Under the pieces are notes generated by a model that was given only the letters and a program-made list of their open reading frames with translations, was not told the origin of the DNA and searched no databases. A DNA stretch of 64,000 nt, taken from assembly GCF_024298765.1 (NCBI RefSeq), contig NZ_CP101210.1, one strand, 5' to 3'. The translations under genes were made by a program, and so were the position numbers. Source of the DNA: Escherichia coli. GTDB lineage: Bacteria; Pseudomonadota; Gammaproteobacteria; Enterobacterales; Enterobacteriaceae. The stretch's first letter is position 1. Every line of letters starts with the position of its first letter. Shown one piece after another: positions 1 through 63,237 of the stretch.

Positions 1-209
1 CTAATGCTGGGGCGTTAAAAGCCGGGGGTATGGTGGCTTCAATGGATCAGGGCGGTTCTCCCATTACCTGGTTACTGATTCAGGTTTTCTCCCCGCAAAA
101 TATTCCCGGTTTCATTATTATCGGTGCAATTTATCTGACCGGTATTTTCATGACCTGGCGTAGAGCGCGTGGCTTTATTAAACAAGAGAAAGTCGTTCTC
201 GCAGAATAA
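1..209 (+). CDS. gatC: PTS galactitol-specific EIIC component, 3' end (partial, runs off window start)
   Basis: In-frame translation ...GALKAGGMVASMDQGGSPITWLLIQVFSPQNIPGFIIIGAIYLTGIFMTWRRARGFIKQEKVVLAE, stop TAA at 207-209; directly upstream of gatD as in the gat operon. Confidence 0.8.
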   Translation, partial: NAGALKAGGMVASMDQGGSPITWLLIQVFSPQNIPGFIIIGAIYLTGIFMTWRRARGFIKQEKVVLAE

Positions 210-256
210 TTTTTACCTGAGGGGGAGGTTATCCCCCTTAACAATCAGGAGTTTTT

Positions 257-1297
257 ATGAAATCAGTGGTGAATGATACTGATGGTATCGTGCGCGTTGC
301 AGAAAGCGTCATTCCTGAAATTAAACATCAGGATGAGGTGCGGGTAAAAATTGCCAGCTCGGGCTTATGTGGTTCCGATTTACCCAGGATATTTAAAAAT
401 GGTGCACATTATTATCCAATAACGTTAGGCCATGAATTTAGCGGCTATATTGATGCGGTGGGATCCGGTGTTGATGATTTACACCCTGGCGATGCGGTTG
501 CCTGTGTGCCGTTATTACCCTGTTTTACTTGTCCAGAGTGTCTGAAAGGGTTTTATTCCCAGTGCGCAAAATATGATTTTATTGGCTCGCGGCGTGATGG
601 TGGATTTGCTGAATATATTGTCGTTAAGCGAAAAAATGTCTTTGCTCTACCCACGGATATGCCTATTGAGGATGGGGCTTTTATTGAGCCGATTACCGTT
701 GGTCTGCATGCTTTTCATTTAGCGCAAGGTTGTGAGAATAAAAACGTTATTATTATTGGTGCCGGAACCATTGGCCTGCTGGCCATTCAGTGCGCTGTCG
801 CGCTGGGAGCAAAGAGTGTGACGGCGATCGACATTAGTTCAGAAAAACTGGCACTGGCAAAATCTTTCGGTGCGATGCAAACATTTAACAGTAGCGAAAT
901 GAGCGCGCCGCAAATGCAGAGCGTTTTACGCGAACTGCGCTTTAATCAGCTTATCCTCGAGACGGCTGGCGTACCGCAAACTGTCGAACTGGCGGTAGAG
1001 ATTGCCGGTCCTCATGCCCAACTGGCGCTGGTGGGCACGTTGCATCAGGATCTGCATTTAACATCGGCAACGTTTGGCAAAATATTGCGTAAAGAGCTGA
1101 CGGTTATCGGCAGTTGGATGAACTACTCCAGCCCTTGGCCGGGGCAGGAGTGGGAAACGGCGAGCCGGTTGCTGACAGAACGTAAGTTAAGCCTGGAGCC
1201 ATTAATCGCTCACCGTGGAAGCTTTGAAAGCTTCGCCCAGGCGGTGCGTGACATCGCTCGTAATGCTATGCCGGGCAAAGTGTTGCTCATTCCCTGA
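257..1297 (+). CDS. gatD: galactitol-1-phosphate 5-dehydrogenase (Zn-dependent alcohol dehydrogenase family)
   Basis: 346 aa ORF; MDR/Zn-ADH motifs (GHEFSG, cysteine cluster CxxCxxC, Rossmann GAGTIGL); gat operon context. Confidence 0.9.
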   Translation: MKSVVNDTDGIVRVAESVIPEIKHQDEVRVKIASSGLCGSDLPRIFKNGAHYYPITLGHEFSGYIDAVGSGVDDLHPGDAVACVPLLPCFTCPECLKGFYSQCAKYDFIGSRRDGGFAEYIVVKRKNVFALPTDMPIEDGAFIEPITVGLHAFHLAQGCENKNVIIIGAGTIGLLAIQCAVALGAKSVTAIDISSEKLALAKSFGAMQTFNSSEMSAPQMQSVLRELRFNQLILETAGVPQTVELAVEIAGPHAQLALVGTLHQDLHLTSATFGKILRKELTVIGSWMNYSSPWPGQEWETASRLLTERKLSLEPLIAHRGSFESFAQAVRDIARNAMPGKVLLIP

Positions 1298-1396
1298 AAC
1301 CGCGGGCCAGCGTGATGCTGGCCCGGTATTGTGCAAAACAGATCATTCACCAATGGTCCCCCTTCGTTTACACTAGCCACAATTGAATATGGGTAA

Positions 1397-2176
1397 ATGA
1401 CGATGAATTCATTCGAGCGAAGGAATAAGATCATCCAATTAGTGAATGAACAGGGAACCGTGCTTGTTCAGGATCTGGCGGGAGTATTTGCTGCCTCGGA
1501 AGCGACAATCCGTGCCGATTTGCGCTTTCTCGAACAAAAAGGCGTGGTTACGCGCTTTCATGGCGGTGCGGCGAAAATAATGTCTGGTAATAGTGAAACC
1601 GAGACCCAGGAAGTCGGGTTTAAAGAGCGATTTCAGCTCGCCAGCGCGCCAAAAAACAGAATAGCGCAGGCGGCAGTCAAAATGATCCACGAAGGGATGA
1701 CCGTTATTCTCGACAGCGGAAGTACGACAATGCTTATCGCCGAAGGATTAATGACCGCCAAAAATATCACGGTGATTACCAACAGTCTCCCGGCAGCGTT
1801 TGCCCTTTCCGAAAATAAAGACATTACTCTGGTCGTCTGTGGTGGCACGGTCCGCCATAAAACGCGCTCGATGCATGGTTCCATTGCCGAGCGTTCATTA
1901 CAGGATATTAATGCCGATTTAATGTTTGTCGGTGCTGATGGTATTGATGCGGTTAATGGTATTACGACCTTTAATGAAGGTTATTCTATTAGCGGTGCGA
2001 TGGTCACAGCCGCTAATAAAGTGATTGCCGTTCTCGATTCATCGAAATTTAACCGTCGCGGTTTTAATCAGGTACTACCAATCGAAAAAATTGACATTAT
2101 TATTACCGATGATGCTGTGTCAGAGGTGGATAAACTGGCATTGCAGAAGACGCGGGTAAAATTAATTACGGTGTAG
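1397..2176 (+). CDS. gatR: DeoR-family transcriptional repressor of the galactitol operon (intact)
   Basis: 259 aa ORF with N-terminal HTH and DeoR sugar-binding C-terminal domain; position after gatD. Confidence 0.85.
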   Translation: MTMNSFERRNKIIQLVNEQGTVLVQDLAGVFAASEATIRADLRFLEQKGVVTRFHGGAAKIMSGNSETETQEVGFKERFQLASAPKNRIAQAAVKMIHEGMTVILDSGSTTMLIAEGLMTAKNITVITNSLPAAFALSENKDITLVVCGGTVRHKTRSMHGSIAERSLQDINADLMFVGADGIDAVNGITTFNEGYSISGAMVTAANKVIAVLDSSKFNRRGFNQVLPIEKIDIIITDDAVSEVDKLALQKTRVKLITV

Positions 2177-2257
2177 TATTGTTCTGTATGCCGGATAAGG
2201 TGTTTACACCGCATCCGGCATTACGGATTCTCCCTGGTTCAAGAGAGAATAGTTTGA

Positions 2258-3157
2258 TTAACGCAACAGTGGACAATCTGGTGGTAATCGACAACGCAAC
2301 GCTGCCGGAAGTATTTCAATATGAAAATTTTGCCCACTCAACGGTTCGCCATCAAGATTAAAGGTGATGTCGTGTGGTGCCTGAATATCAAACCACGACG
2401 AAGCGCCTTCGATAATATTCGGGTTATCTTCGTCAGATTTTAAGGTTGATACGAGAGCCGGAAGTATTTCATCGCCGGTAAAAATGCGCAGTTGCAGCAA
2501 GCCATCGTTAATTAACGCGTTCGGACACAATTGCTGACCGCCACCGGCCTGACGCCCGTTACCAATACCAATGACCAGGGCGTCACCTTGCCAGTGAAAG
2601 TTTTCACCGCGGATTTCACAACGGTCCGGTTGCAGAGTATCCATACGCATTAAGCCATGAATGATGTAAGAGACGCTACCCAGCGCGGCTTTTAATTTTT
2701 CCGGCGTTTCTGTGGTAATACGCGTCCCAAATCCGCCTGTCGCCATATTAATAAAACAGGTTTGTTTGTTGACCTGCGCCATATCTATCGCAATGGCGTC
2801 ACCGGCAATTGCCAGTTTCAGCGCCTTATCCAGTGCCTCAGGAATCCCTACACTGGTGGCAAAATCATTGGCGGTTCCTAATGGCAAAATTCCCAGCGCG
2901 GGTATGTCATCCCCCTCACACTGAATCAACGCCGTAGAAACTTCATTAATGGTGCCATCGCCACCACCGGCAATCACCGTTGCGACGCCCAACTTCCGGG
3001 CCTCCTCTACATATCGTGCGGCATCGCCTTTCTCCCAGGTGACCCGCACATGGATCGTCATTCCTTCCTCACGCAACAGCATAATTGCTTCGCGCAAGGG
3101 TAGATTGTCAGTACTTTTGCCATTAAGAATCAGTAAGCTGGCGGGAAATTCTGCCAT
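2258..3157 (-). CDS. yegS: lipid kinase YegS (diacylglycerol kinase catalytic domain family)
   Basis: 299 aa; GGDGT motif ([13 protein letters not shown]); matches recalled YegS sequence. Confidence 0.9.
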
Positions 3158-3562
3158 GATCGTATGTGCCTTTATGATTGGTCTGTAGATAGTGTAGAGC
3201 AGAAAACAAAAGGTGGAGTCAGAACAGGATGAAAGTCGGAGGATAAAAAGTCAGTTCAAGTATGGAGGATTCAGTGGTTACCACCAGGAGCTTGCAATGG
3301 GGACAGCGAATACTAACGGCTGCCACCGATAAATTTCAAAAAAGAGCATATACCTAATATTCAACTAAACAGTGGCATCTTCAATATAATATATTAAAGC
3401 CCCCATGGAGTTACCCTGAAGGGCCTCAATGTCCGTAATTCCTACTTATGTAGGAAATGTTGTACAGAACATTTATTATAATCCTATTCAATTATAATAA
3501 TCATGCCATTATTATATTTAAACACTAGAGAGTGTCGTTGGTATTTAATGGGGGAAGGTGAG

Positions 3563-3880
3563 ATGAAAAAGATAGCTGCTATATCATTAATTAGTATTTT
3601 TATTATGTCTGGTTGTGCTGTGCATAATGATGAGACAAGTATCGGTAAATTTGGTCTTGCATATAAAAGTAATATTCAGCGTAAACTTGATAACCAATAC
3701 TACACCGAAGCCGAAGCTTCTTTAGCCAGGGGTAGAATATCTGGTGCAGAAAATATAGTAAAAAATGATGCAACTCATTTCTGTGTTACTCAGGGCAAAA
3801 AAATGCAAATAGTTGAGCTGAAGACAGAAGGTGTAGGATTACATGGTGTCGCTCGTCTGACATTCAAATGTGGAGAGTGA
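3563..3880 (+). CDS. yegR: small lipoprotein YegR (105 aa)
   Basis: Internal ATG at 3563 gives MKKIAAISLISIFIMSGC signal peptide with lipobox; AT-rich; the ORF-track start at 3503 is an upstream extension. Confidence 0.75.
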   Translation: MKKIAAISLISIFIMSGCAVHNDETSIGKFGLAYKSNIQRKLDNQYYTEAEASLARGRISGAENIVKNDATHFCVTQGKKMQIVELKTEGVGLHGVARLTFKCGE

Positions 3881-4037
3881 GAATATTTTTTGGTAAGCGT
3901 CAAATATGCGCGTTCTGGCTGTGCGTAGCCGGAACCTGTGGGAGCACGATGCCGATAAGTGAAAGGCATCGTGCTATGAAGGAGGATTCTATCGATGTGG
4001 TCAATGGAAGACGGTTACCAGAGATAGGGCTTATGCA

Positions 4038-4073
4038 TAAAAAAATAAGCCCGTGTAAGGGAGATTACACAGG
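4038..4073 (-). terminator. putative Rho-independent terminator downstream of yegQ
   Basis: Inverted repeat ccgtgtaa...ttacacagg (4050-4073) followed on the minus strand by a T-rich run (plus strand aaaaaaataag). Confidence 0.4.
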
Positions 4074-4210
4074 CTAAGGAGGTGGTTCCTGGTACAGCTA
4101 GCATTTTATGGGTTATGTTTTTCAGCGAAACGGATGATAACCTTAATAAATGCAGCTGTATGTGATCGGTTTCTAAGAATTTTCCATCCGGGAAAAATAA
4201 TCGAAATTAA

Positions 4211-6964: not shown

Positions 6965-8364
6965 ACTTCTCTCTGTAAATCCCGTTCCAGCGGTAACTCT
7001 ACTGTAATGCTTACCCCGCCAAAAGGCGAATGGGCAGCAATAATGCGACCATTATGTGCTTCAACAATGTTCAGGCAAATCGCCAGCCCCAGCCCGGAAC
7101 CGCCGCTGGCACGGTTGCGGGAACCTTCGGTGCGATAAAAACGTTCAAACAATTTTTGTAGCTGATCGTCACTGACACCTGGCGCACTGTCGGCAAAGGT
7201 CAGTCGCACCGTTTTGTCGCGCTGCCCGGCAGAGATTTGCAGGCTGCCGCCGCTGTCAGTGTAGCGCAGGCTGTTTTCCAGTAAGTTATTGAATAACTGC
7301 ATTAAACGGTCGCGATCGCCAAATACGGTAATACTGTCTGGCAGGGAAAATTGCAGTTTCAGGCCACGACTGGCGAATCGTTCGCGAAATGCGCCGCCCG
7401 CCACTTCCAGCAGTGGGATCAAATCTACCGGTGCTTTTTGATAGGCGAGAGCGCCTTCATCAGACATCGACAACTGATGGAGATCGTCAACCAGTTTGGT
7501 CAGTGTACCGACCTCCGCCTGTAAAGACGCCACCGTCTCCGGCGTGAATTTACGCACGCCATCCTGAATGGCTTCCAGTTCACCGCGCAGCACCGCTAAT
7601 GGCGTACGCAGTTCGTGAGAAATATCGGCCATAAAATCGCGCCGCATTTGCTGGTTTTTCTCCAGTGTGCTGGCAAGCTGGTTGAAGTCTTGCGCCAGTT
7701 TGCCCAGTTCATCTTCACTGGTGGGCGTTACGCGGGTAGTGAAATCGCCCGCCGCCAGTTTGTGCGTGCCATCGACAAGTCGTTTTACCGGTGCCAGTAA
7801 ACCGCGCGCCAGCAGAAAAGTGGCAAGTGCCGCGAGTAACGTTGCCAGGGCGACAATCAACCAGCTGGTTTGCCGCTGTTGTTTATCGAAATTGATATCA
7901 GTATTGCGCGTTAACCGCTCAACGGGGGAGGCGATCACCGCGCCCACTTCCGCACCGTTGACCAGAATGGGTCGCCGTGTACCGTCAGGTGGAATCGGCG
8001 CTCGTGGACCAACCAGCACTTTGTTGTTTTGATCAACCACCCAGAACTGGGTACGCCAGCCGTGCGGTGGCATACCCGGGCCGGGTTTATCTTCCGAATT
8101 ATCGTGTTCAAATGAACGCAGGATCTGAAAGACAAAGCGATCATTGTTGCGCAGGAAGCGCCAGTTGCCATGCTGCGCATACTGCTCGCCAAGCGCATCA
8201 CTTAACAGTTGTAATCGCTGTTCATTACCATGCTTGATGTAATCAATAAAGCCACGCTCAAAACTGATACGCACCGCCCAGTGCATACTGATCAGCAAGA
8301 CAATGCAGGTGGCGAAAATCGCCAGAAACAGTTTGCCGGTAATACCAGGTCGCCAGAACTTCAT
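6961..8364 (-). CDS. baeS: envelope-stress sensor histidine kinase BaeS
   Basis: 467 aa; two TM segments, HAMP, H-box ([11 protein letters not shown]), ATPase G-boxes. Confidence 0.9.
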
Positions 8365-17454: not shown

Positions 17455-17600
17455 AACGGGAAAGCCCCTCCCGAGGAAGGGGCCTTAAATAAGGAAAGGG
17501 TCATGATGAAGCTACTCATCATCGTGGTGCTCTTAGTCATAAGCTTCCCCGCTTACTAAGACTACCAGGGCGGGGGAAACCCCGCTCTACCCTCACTCCT
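17455..17600 (-). ncRNA. putative Sib-type antisense sRNA (antitoxin of the ibs type I TA pair), copy 1; ends approximate
   Basis: Overlaps the small ibs ORF on the opposite strand; minus-strand hairpin GCCCCTTCCTCGGGAGGGGC (17464-17483) followed by a T-rich tract; part of a ~326-bp tandem repeat. Confidence 0.45.
17503..17559 (+). CDS. Ibs-family type I toxin, 18 aa hydrophobic peptide (MMKLLIIVVLLVISFPAY)
   Basis: Short ORF with RBS (aaggaaaggg) read directly from the sequence; absent from the ORF track; matches the Ibs toxin family. Confidence 0.7.
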   Translation: MMKLLIIVVLLVISFPAY

Positions 17601-17847
17601 GAAAGTATGCCTTCACGATAAGATTGTCAATCCGCAGGCTTTGTAGTCTGCGATCCTGCCAGCAAATATTCTTTGCGAGTCGTTACGCAATAATCACAGA
17701 GGAAACTATTTTATTCACGCGTTAGCGATAGACTGCATTCAGGGCGAAAGGAGGTAAGCCGATGATTTCAGCGGGACGCTGAAACGGGAAAGCCTCTCCC
17801 TGTACTGCACCCATTTTGTTGGACGATGAAATGGAATAGCCCCTAAT

Positions 17848-18369
17848 ATGTCAAAGCCAAAATACCCTTTTGAAAAGCGCCTTGAAGTCGTGAATCACTA
17901 CTTCACAACTGATGATGGTTACAGGATCATCTCGGCACGTTTTGGTGTCCCCCGAACCCAGGTCAGGACATGGGTTGCCCTCTATGAAAAACATGGAGAA
18001 AAAGGTTTAATTCCCAAACCTAAAGGCGTTAGTGCTGATCCAGAGTTGCGTATTAAGGTCGTGAAAGCTGTGATCGAGCAGCACATGTCCCTTAATCAGG
18101 CTGCTGCTCACTTTATGCTTGCTGGTAGTGGTTCTGTAGCCAGGTGGCTGAAGGTCTATGAAGAGCGCGGAGAAGCTGGTTTACGCGCGCTCAAGATTGG
18201 CACCAAAAGAAACATTGCAATATCAGTTGATCCAGAAAAAGCGGCATCAGCATTGGAGCTGTCAAAAGACCGACGCATTGAGGATCTTGAAAGGCAAGTT
18301 CGATTTCTTGAAACGCGGCTTGTGTATCTAAAAAAGCTGAAAGCCTTAGCTCATCCCACGAAAAAGTGA
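17848..18369 (+). CDS. insJ: IS150 OrfA (HTH transposase N-terminal protein, 173 aa)
   Basis: 173 aa with HTH; ends at slippery A AAA AAG (18359-18364), the -1 frameshift site to orfB. Confidence 0.85.
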   Translation: MSKPKYPFEKRLEVVNHYFTTDDGYRIISARFGVPRTQVRTWVALYEKHGEKGLIPKPKGVSADPELRIKVVKAVIEQHMSLNQAAAHFMLAGSGSVARWLKVYEERGEAGLRALKIGTKRNIAISVDPEKAASALELSKDRRIEDLERQVRFLETRLVYLKKLKALAHPTKK

Positions 18370-19217
18370 AAGTACTCAACGAGCTAAGGCAGTTTTATCC
18401 TCTTGATGAGCTTCTCAGGGCTGCGGAGATACCGCGCAGTACGTTTTATTACCATCTAAAGGCTCTCAGCAAGCCTGACAAGTATGCGGACGTTAAAAAG
18501 CGTATTGGTGAGATTTATCATGAGAATAGAGGCCGATACGGATACCGTAGGGTAACGCTGTCTCTTCATCGAGAAGGGAAACAGATTAACCATAAAGCTG
18601 TTCAGCGCCTGATGGGAATCCTCTCACTGAAGGCAGCGATTAAGGTCAAGCGATACCGCTCTTACAGAGGAGAGGTAGGGCAAACCGCCCCCAATGTTCT
18701 CCAAAGAGATTTCAAGGCTACGCGGCCAAACGAGAAGTGGGTTACCGATGTTACTGAATTTGCAGTCAATGGGCGCAAGCTGTATTTGTCTCCAGTAATA
18801 GATCTCTTCAACAACGAAGTTATTTCTTACAGCCTTTCGGAAAGACCAGTGATGAACATGGTCGAGAATATGCTCGATCAGGCATTCAAAAAGCTTAATC
18901 CTCACGAGCATCCTGTTCTGCACTCTGACCAGGGATGGCAGTATCGTATGAGAAGATATCAAAATATCCTTAAAGAACATGGTATTAAACAAAGCATGTC
19001 CAGAAAAGGCAATTGTCTGGATAATGCTGTGGTGGAGTGTTTCTTTGGAACCTTAAAGTCGGAGTGTTTTTATCTTGATGAGTTCAGTAATATAAGCGAG
19101 CTGAAGGATGCTGTTACGGAATATATTGAATACTACAACAGCAGAAGAATTAGCCTGAAATTAAAAGGTCTGACTCCAATTGAATATCGGAATCAGACCT
19201 ATATGCCTCGTGTTTAA
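18366..19217 (+). CDS. insK: IS150 OrfB (DDE transposase catalytic domain, 283 aa)
   Basis: 283 aa with DDE integrase-core motifs ([25 protein letters not shown]). Confidence 0.85.
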
Positions 19218-19277
19218 CTGTCCAACTTTTTGGGGTCAGTACACCCGGAGAAGAGGGCTTTTAATAAGGAAAGGGTT

Positions 19278-19337
19278 ATGATGAAGCACGTCATCATACT
19301 GGTGATACTCTTAGTGATTAGCTTCCAGGCTTACTAA
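19278..19337 (+). CDS. Ibs-family type I toxin, 19 aa (MMKHVIILVILLVISFQAY), copy 2
   Basis: Short ORF with RBS immediately past the IS150 right end; paralogue of the peptide at 17503. Confidence 0.65.
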   Translation: MMKHVIILVILLVISFQAY

Positions 19338-19557
19338 GAACACCAGGGGGAGGGGGAAACCTCTCCCTAACCCTCACTCCTGAAATTATGTCACTCCGCC
19401 CTTAGTGTCAATCGACGGCTCTCCGTTCTTGCGAGGCGAATAGCAAAATTTTCTGCGCCGCCGGGCCTAATTCTGAAAGTTTCTTCGTTTGTTCTTATTT
19501 CATTATTGCAGTCGGTATGATACCGGACCTCAATAATTCTCTAAGAAAGGATTTCTT

Positions 19558-21535: not shown

Positions 21536-22730
<1,195 letters not shown>

Positions 22731-36360: not shown

Positions 36361-36399
36361 TCAGTGTATTGGTAGCTAAAAAGCCAGGGGCGGTAGCGT
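36361..36399 (+). promoter_or_regulatory. JUMPstart element with ops (RfaH-recruiting) site in the wza leader
   Basis: 39-bp cagtgtattggtagctaaaaagccaggggcggtagcgtg; ops GGCGGTAGCGTG at 36388-36399. Confidence 0.85.
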
Positions 36400-36578
36400 G
36401 TCTGGATGCCTGAAAGACCAGTCTGAATTATTCTGTCAATAGCCTGCGGATGAAATCAATTTTTTTAGGACTGATGCCAGTTAAATTTGTATTCAATTAA
36501 CTGCAAGGTAAATGTGCATGGCGACATTGCTATTAATAGTGCACAGGATAATTACTCTGCCAAAGTGATAAATAAACA

Positions 36579-50842: not shown

Positions 50843-50931
50843 ATGAATGCGAAACCGAGATGTAAATAACGACAAAAACAAAATTGGCCGTTTCGGTCAG
50901 GGCCAACTATTGCCTGAAAAAGGGTAACGAC

Positions 50932-55340: not shown

Positions 55341-55526
55341 GCCGGATGCGGCGTAAAACGCCTTATCCATCCTACGGTTCCGTGCTCGGGACCTGTAGGC
55401 CTGATAAGACGCGTCAGCGTCGCATCAGGCACTGAATGCCGGATGCGGCGTGAACGCCTTATCCGGCCTACGGTTCTGTGCTCGGGTCTTGTAGGCCTGA
55501 TAAGACGCGTCAGCGTCGCATCAGGC
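55341..55526. repeat. tandem BIME/REP cluster (two ~95-bp units)
   Basis: Two near-identical units each holding gccggatgcggcgt(g/a)aacgccttatcc and tgtaggcctgataagacgcgtcagcgtcgcatcaggc. Confidence 0.8.
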
Positions 55527-62011: not shown

Positions 62012-62050
62012 CAGTGAGTTGGTAACTGTTAAGCCAAGGGCGGTAGCGTG
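62012..62050 (+). promoter_or_regulatory. JUMPstart element with ops site (O-antigen operon leader)
   Basis: 39-bp cagtgagttggtaactgttaagccaagggcggtagcgtg; ops GGCGGTAGCGTG at 62039-62050. Confidence 0.85.
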
Positions 62051-62085
62051 TGTTTTGATCCTACCCACGTAATATGGACACAGGC

Positions 62086-62841
62086 CTAAGCGAGGTTCTG
62101 GTTTTCAAATTGTTCCGGACTGAGGCCGCCACACCAACTGTGCCGCCGCCACCGATTGTAATCACATTCGATATAATTAAACACCGTTGCCCGCATTATT
62201 TCCCGGCTGATAAAGTGTTCTCCATGGATACATTCCACTTTCAGCGAATGAAAGAAGCTTTCCACGCAGGCATTATCGTAGCAGCAACCTTTTGCGCTCA
62301 TACTTCCACGCAGATTATGCCGCTTCAGTTGCGCCGTCATGCGTGGCGACATTGACCAGCCAATAACGGCACGTGACCACAGGTCAATGACCACTGCCAG
62401 ATACAGCCAGCCTTCATCTGTACGTAAGTACGTGATGTCTCCTGCCCACTTCTGGTTCGGGCCACTGGCGTAAAAATCCTGCTCCAACAGATTTTCTGAC
62501 ACAGGCAGGCCGTGTGCGCGGTAGCTGACCGGGCTGAACTTCCGGGAGGCCTTTGCCCTCAGTCCCTGACGGCGCAGGCTTGCCGCCACGGTTTTTACGT
62601 TAAAGGGGTAACCCTGAGCACGCAGTTCATCCGTCAGGCGTGGGGCACCGTAACGCTGTTTTGACCGGGTAAAAGCCGCGAGGACAACGCTGTCGCAGTG
62701 TTGGCGGAACTGCTGACGCGTGCTTATCCTTGTCCGCCGCTGACACCACGTATACCAGCCGCTGCGGGCCACCCGGAGCACGCGGCACATTGCTTTGATG
62801 CTGAACTCAGCCTGATGTTTTTCAATAAAGACATACTTCAT
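62086..62841 (-). pseudogene. insF: IS3 OrfB transposase with ~37-aa internal deletion
   Basis: 251 aa against ~288 expected; reads ...[20 protein letters not shown]..., missing the block that I recall contains HTDRGGQY. Confidence 0.65.
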
Positions 62842-63137
62842 TTCAGGCGCTTCGCGAAGTATGTCGCGGCCTTTTGGAGGATAGCCAGCTCTTCATCCCG
62901 TTCTGCCAGCTGGCGTTTGAGACGTGCAATCTCGGTAGACATCTCCAGTTCACGTTCAGAAGACGTCTGCTGATTTTGCTGTTTACTGCGCCAGTTGTAG
63001 AGCTGTGATTCATACAGGCTGAGTTCACGGGCTGCGGCAGTAACACCGATGCGTTCAGCAAGCTTCAGGGCTTCACTGCGAAATTCAGGCGAATGCTGTT
63101 TACGGGGTTTTTTACTGGTTGATACTGTTTTTGTCAT
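62838..63137 (-). CDS. insE: IS3 OrfA (HTH protein, 99 aa)
   Basis: [32 protein letters not shown]... matches recalled IS3 OrfA. Confidence 0.85.
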
Positions 63138-63237
63138 GTGAGTCACCTCTGACTGAGAGTTTACTCACTTAGCCGCGTGTCCACTATTGCTGGGTAAGAT
63201 CATTTTTCTCTCAATCCTCATGATAAAGGAGGTTTAT

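Follow-up and report, generated by a model that had tools for sequence, protein, structure and literature searches.

Has this strain of Escherichia coli kept a working repressor of its galactitol (gat) genes, as laboratory strains such as MG1655 have not? The question arises from an open reading frame (ORF) at positions 1397-2176 (+ strand) of the window, by which we mean the whole 64-kb stretch of DNA that was analysed. The ORF lies directly downstream of gatD and was read from the letters alone as an intact gatR, the gene for the DeoR-family repressor of the galactitol operon. Here we consider whether the frame is complete, whether the allele is one of known function, and what it may say about regulation of the operon and about the background of the strain.

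The gatR reading frame and its domains

In the ORF listing of the 64-kb window, 1397-2176 (+) is an ATG-started frame of 259 aa, and reading the sequence through found no internal stop or frameshift within it. Searches of Pfam placed the N-terminal DeoR-type helix-turn-helix DNA-binding domain (HTH_DeoR, PF08220) at aa 8-60, encoded by 1418-1576 (+), with 60.5 bits against a cut-off of 21 and a match that spans profile positions 1-53 of 57. The C-terminal DeoRC sensor (effector-binding) domain (PF00455) was found at aa 85-238, encoded by 1649-2110 (+), with 174.2 bits against a cut-off of 31.8 and a match to profile positions 5-159 of 160. Neither domain is truncated, and their pairing, HTH plus DeoRC, is that of the DeoR/GlpR family. 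By sequence, the nearest solved structure is the DeoR C-terminal domain 7l6l_A (E = 1.9e-11), which covers aa 85-256 of GatR. With the frame open and both domains complete, the full-length 259-aa DeoR-type repressor described after gatD in the sequence-only reading is confirmed, save that the RefSeq start gives 257 aa.

The length of 259 aa is that of the longest possible ORF, starting at 1397; RefSeq/PGAP begins the identical gene at the second ATG, at 1403, to give the 257-aa protein WP_001295426.1. Both ATG-1397 and ATG-1403 are kept in the divergent alleles described below, which is uninformative between the two. A GGGT at 1391-1394 lies 8 nt ahead of ATG-1403 and 2 nt ahead of ATG-1397, and because of this spacing a start at 1403 seems favoured over one at 1397.

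Insertions in laboratory lineages

In the MG1655 annotation, gatR (b4498, 'DNA-binding transcriptional repressor GatR') is a pseudogene that IS3E divides into two fragments. By prefix/suffix matching, the insertion is an IS3E of 1258 bp, and the 3 bp that it duplicated, GAC, correspond to window 1699-1701 (+); in the alignment this target site is empty and the window gene is uninterrupted across it. The element cuts the K-12 protein at about codon 102, just inside DeoRC. When IS3E and the 3-bp duplication are taken out, the K-12 fragments and the window gatR are the same. The alignment revealed no premature stop or frameshift and both K-12 fragments were 100% identical to the window, which agrees with the original call of an intact gene. 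Over the wider locus, the window is 100% identical to an MG1655-derived chromosome from 1 to 1701 (including gatC'-gatD) and 99.9% identical from 1699 to 4057.

In the B strain BLR(DE3) the interruption is a different one, an IS1 that has duplicated 9 bp, CGATTTCAG; its target site corresponds to window 1628-1636 (+), and by alignment is likewise empty and uninterrupted in the window. The BLR(DE3) gatR flanks are 100% identical to the window, from which it differs by the IS1 insertion. Judged by these two junctions, MG1655-type K-12 and BLR(DE3)-type B lost gatR by different, independent IS events. Besides K-12, the B lineage is a laboratory background in which gatR is broken, and the sequence-only reading makes no mention of it.

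Disruption of gatR by an IS leads to constitutive gat expression in MG1655 (PMC5850726, PMC4072538, bioRxiv 10.64898/2026.01.05.697630), and the higher gat expression of this strain has been put down to the gatR disruption (PMC3045373). One sentence of PMC5850726 names the MG1655 element as IS1; by genome annotation and by our alignment it is IS3. The earlier statement that an IS interrupts gatR in K-12 laboratory strains and makes galactitol catabolism constitutive therefore holds for MG1655, where IS3E is mapped and the papers agree, but 'K-12' is too broad a term: NCM3722, also K-12, is reported without the gatR disruption (PMC3045373), and a further K-12 strain, EMG2, has lost the whole gat locus, which has been described as an IS hotspot (PMC9997739).

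An allele of known function

The window gatR is identical to that of E. coli HS at 780 of 780 nt, and the protein is WP_001295426.1 in both. As in the window, HS gatR has gatD upstream and yegS convergent downstream; the wider region differs at 72 of 15,480 aligned bases (99.5% identity), with no difference within the gene. The evidence that this allele works is thus indirect, but experimental: when PCR-amplified HS gatR was put in place of the MG1655 pseudogene, the resulting strain 'regulates the operon expression' (Sousa et al. 2017, PMC5850726). In mice, the regulated strain that carried HS gatR regained IS insertions in gatR (PMC5850726).

Two more divergent natural alleles were also compared. 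The gatR of O26 RM10386 has 20 nt differences from the window, all of them synonymous, and so encodes the same WP_001295426.1, while that of strain B2.3 has 25, of which 24 are synonymous and one gives I198V. Because the differences in these two alleles are nearly all synonymous, purifying selection on gatR in natural E. coli is evident from the sequence comparison.

Predicted repression of the gat operon

We consider it very probable that the gene is a wild-type, functional gatR, with gat off in the absence of galactitol and induced in its presence; the sequence offers no evidence to the contrary. In the proposed mechanism, the N-terminal winged-helix domain of GatR would bind operators at the gatYZABCD promoter and the DeoRC domain would sense a phosphorylated pathway intermediate. 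By analogy with the DeoR-family sugar-phosphate repressors, the inducer is usually assumed to be galactitol-1-phosphate. The gat genes would be silent until galactitol is supplied and would then be switched on. The strain would have kept an ancestral gatR that MG1655-type K-12 lost to IS3E and the B lineage to IS1. We infer that gatR is expressed, that the inducer is the one assumed, and that the operon upstream is intact and repressible.

At the level of the operon, proper repressibility, as put forward in the sequence-only reading, is plausible because the window allele is identical at 780 of 780 nt to the HS gatR that restored regulation in MG1655; the gatY promoter, the operators and gatYZAB lie upstream of the window. 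An intact gatR could also sit beside an operon in which regulation is irrelevant or has been lost, either through mutation in those upstream parts (the promoter, the operators, gatYZAB or most of gatC) or because gatR is unexpressed. Damage to gat genes is common: the MG1655 annotation gives gatC as a pseudogene, and in O26 RM10386 a gatD with an internal stop lies beside an intact gatR, so that an intact gatR alone does not imply a working gat pathway. The same alternative draws on the locus being an IS hotspot that was lost in EMG2 (PMC9997739), on the presence of three IS copies in the 64-kb window, and on the failure to detect a clear gatR promoter (see below). Against it, everything visible from the gatC 3' end through gatD and the spacer into gatR is 100% identical to K-12 over 1-1701, and alleles with 20-25 differences in the coding sequence have 0-1 in the gatD-gatR spacer. 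On this evidence we regard lost or irrelevant regulation as quite unlikely, and favour a functional repressor acting on an inducible operon.

Identity of the gene and its neighbours

The name GatR rests on synteny and identity, because NCBIfam has no GatR-specific model, so that equivalog-level HMM naming is not possible, and because the best NCBIfam matches, AgaR (232.9 bits, cut-off 260) and SrlR (226.3 bits, cut-off 350), are both below their cut-offs. Upstream of gatR, the 3' end of gatC (galactitol PTS IIC) occupies 1-209 (+), the gene beginning upstream of the window; its end at 209 was taken from the MG1655-derived locus, which is 100% identical over window 1-1701. It is followed by gatD at 257-1297 (+), an intact gene for galactitol-1-phosphate 5-dehydrogenase (346 aa) whose product matches NF007642 (NCBIfam) with 729.4 bits against a cut-off of 550 and whose DNA is identical to K-12 gatD. 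The gatR frame starts 99 bp after gatD, and is convergent with yegS (lipid kinase) at 2258-3157 (-), whose product matches NF009602 with 489.5 bits against a cut-off of 284. The gene order gatC-gatD-gatR-yegS-yegR-yegQ is common to the window, K-12, B, HS and CP131. In a large protein collection, the exact GatR protein (in its 259-aa and 257-aa forms) is present on at least 1000 contigs, and the source name of the identical protein is 'DeoR family galactitol utilization operon repressor'.

Judged by its position after gatD, its uninterrupted frame and its identity to both b4498 and HS gatR, the gene is the GatR orthologue. AgaR and SrlR are the top NCBIfam models for the ORF at 1397-2176, and AgaR, SrlR, GlpR and DeoR share with GatR the two-domain layout of HTH_DeoR plus DeoRC, which could point to another DeoR-family paralogue, AgaR- or SrlR-like, in place of the galactitol repressor. 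However, the AgaR and SrlR scores are both under the curated cut-offs, AgaR, SrlR, GlpR and DeoR differ from GatR in equivalog cut-offs that it does not reach, in genomic context and in presumed effector, and the identity is settled by the position after gatD and by the K-12 gatR fragments and HS gatR, all of which the ORF matches at 100%; we give a paralogue practically no credence. Equally hard to credit is a real disruption masked by an error of sequencing or assembly, such as a collapsed IS: although IS are sometimes collapsed in draft assemblies, nothing specific favours this here, the assembly resolves three IS copies at other places in the window, and the contiguous sequence is identical to several independent complete genomes.

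The gatD-gatR spacer and the gatR-yegS intergenic hairpins

Folding of the region around gatR identified structures on both sides of the gene. Just after the gatD stop, at 1303-1325 (+), is a G+C-rich hairpin with a 9-bp stem and no U-tract (-21.1 kcal/mol, z = -2.6). It may be a weak or partial terminator of gatYZABCD; a terminator scan of 1150-2400 called no terminators, this hairpin included.

A consensus scan of 1150-2400 found no consensus-like sigma-70 promoter in the 99-bp gatD-gatR spacer. A candidate picked out by eye, TTCACC (1346-1351) and TACACT (1369-1374) separated by 17 nt, agrees at only 8 of 12 positions and was not relied on. A search for an operator motif shared between the DNA upstream of gatR and that upstream of HS gatY found none, the two having in common a single 8-mer, GTTTACAC. 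The copy of GTTTACAC in the HS gatY upstream region directly precedes a repeated GCATCCGGCA motif that reads as REP-like. Autoregulation by GatR is thus unsupported by these comparisons.

The spacer (1298-1396) has 0-1 differences per 99 bp from O26 RM10386 and B2.3, where the gatR coding sequence has 20-25 per 780. This hints at constraint on the gatD-gatR spacer, in numbers too small for significance. One reading, which we hold to be improbable, is that the spacer with its hairpin at 1303-1325 is a conserved, uncharacterised cis element, acting for example by partial termination and read-through coupling; if so, read-through would tie the dosage of the repressor to transcription of the gat operon, forming a feedback loop. 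A simple, independent gatR promoter is the alternative.

On the other side of the gene, between the convergent gatR and yegS, there are two adjacent hairpins at 2184-2250, whose folding energy is -33.3 kcal/mol for the + strand (z = -5.3) and -32.7 kcal/mol for the - strand (z = -6.2). By motif reading, the first of these is a REP-type palindrome, GCCGGATAAGG...CGCATCCGGC. The pair is likely to be a bidirectional transcript end or stabiliser.

Frequency of intact gatR

We took a census of gatR in 5426 complete RefSeq E. coli genomes. DNA from the gene is present in 5109 of the 5426, and in 4756 a single location holds 80% or more of gatR. The K-12 gatR::IS3 junction was found in 344 genomes, including JM109 and ER1709, and the B-type gatR::IS1 junction in 35. 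When 40 ranked records were sampled evenly, 36 had a single-piece, full-length gatR match at 96.8-100% identity. An uninterrupted gatR is thus estimated for roughly 87% of complete genomes, or ~92% of gatR carriers, these being counts at the DNA level in which rare point-mutation pseudogenes may be scored as intact. The gene is well known, and its intact form is the wild type and the majority state, already known and ordinary.

Strain background

The proposal that an intact gatR helps to assign the strain background stands in part. It rules out MG1655-type K-12 and B-type strains, but it is a weak marker because the intact state is that of the majority, some 87% of complete E. coli genomes. 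Two K-12 markers are absent from the window, namely the gatR::IS3E junction and the PR-X (ogrK/yegZ) P2 remnant between cyaR and yegR. Between yegR and yegQ lie 330 bp in the window, B and HS, compared with 959 bp in K-12, and yegQ itself is only 98.5% identical to K-12. From the intact gatR, the missing PR-X remnant and the divergence of yegQ, we conclude that the window is not K-12; from the missing gatR::IS1 junction, that it is not BLR(DE3)-type B.

The cyaR sRNA (Rfam RF00112, 100.7 bits) lies at 4043-4128 (-), in the gap at 3881-4210 between yegQ and yegR. The 629-bp PR-X P2 remnant of K-12 (ogrK, yegZ) is missing beside it in the window, B, HS and CP131. BLR(DE3) resembles the window in being without the remnant, whereas K-12 MG1655 has it beside cyaR. 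As a marker of a non-K-12 background, the PR-X-free cyaR site is better than gatR.

Among complete RefSeq E. coli genomes, none matches the first 25 kb of the window in full, the best having 95% coverage at 99.2% identity. The nearest sequence found was contig MOKZ01000006.1 of the draft GCA_001893805.1, which is 99.9-100% identical over window 11699-34844 and has the IS150 insertion of the window without its IS5 insertion. For strain assignment, gatR is far less informative than the IS insertions and the O-antigen region.

Other features of the window

The IS150 copy (1443 bp; 17801-19243) has ORFs of 173 aa and 283 aa, and lies between two Sib/Ibs toxin-antitoxin repeats, with Sib RNAs at 17488-17630 and 19263-19411. 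Three related contigs (L005-L007) have instead about 325 bp at this site (their 7221-7545), amid three Ibs toxin genes in a row. The IS150 insertion of the window recurs in the draft GCA_001893805.1 and also in complete genomes, LWY6 for example. An IS5-like element of 1195 bp at 21536-22730, with a 326-aa transposase ORF at 21604-22584, is inserted between yegJ and yegI and has a 4-bp overlap at its junction. It is missing from this site in all five related contigs compared (L005-L009), including L008, which is otherwise near-identical.

The third element, at 62056-63202, is an IS3 copy that has lost about 101 bp internally (positions 281-381 of IS3). It stands directly after a JUMPstart element (62012-62050) and ahead of the first O-antigen gene, which starts at about 63240, and could have a polar effect on O-antigen expression. 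This IS3/O-antigen stretch is covered end to end by only two complete genomes, LHM10-1 and CP52E, and an IS3 is annotated there in both.

The diguanylate cyclase gene dgcE (yegE), within 27238-30556 (-), has one extra G in a G-run at about 30134-30144, giving ORFs of 177 aa and 1007 aa compared with an intact 1105 aa in the related contig L005. The stretch is also without a gene call in the related contigs L006-L009, and the split reflects a genuine frameshift or else a sequencing error in the homopolymer. In the colanic acid (wca) region, Rfam matches at 36362-36400, 50878-50927 and 55398-55468 correspond to a JUMPstart before wza, an algC RNA motif and naRNA4 (- strand), which look expected there.

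Implications for galactitol regulation

The finding matters little beyond annotation; a user of the sequence learns that the strain is not of the MG1655/W3110 type of K-12 nor of the BLR(DE3) type of B. For the strain itself, the intact gatR suggests that its gat genes are inducible, and not constitutive as in K-12. Inducible gat expression would be relevant to work on gut colonisation and experimental evolution, where constitutive gat expression is counter-selected (PMC5850726).
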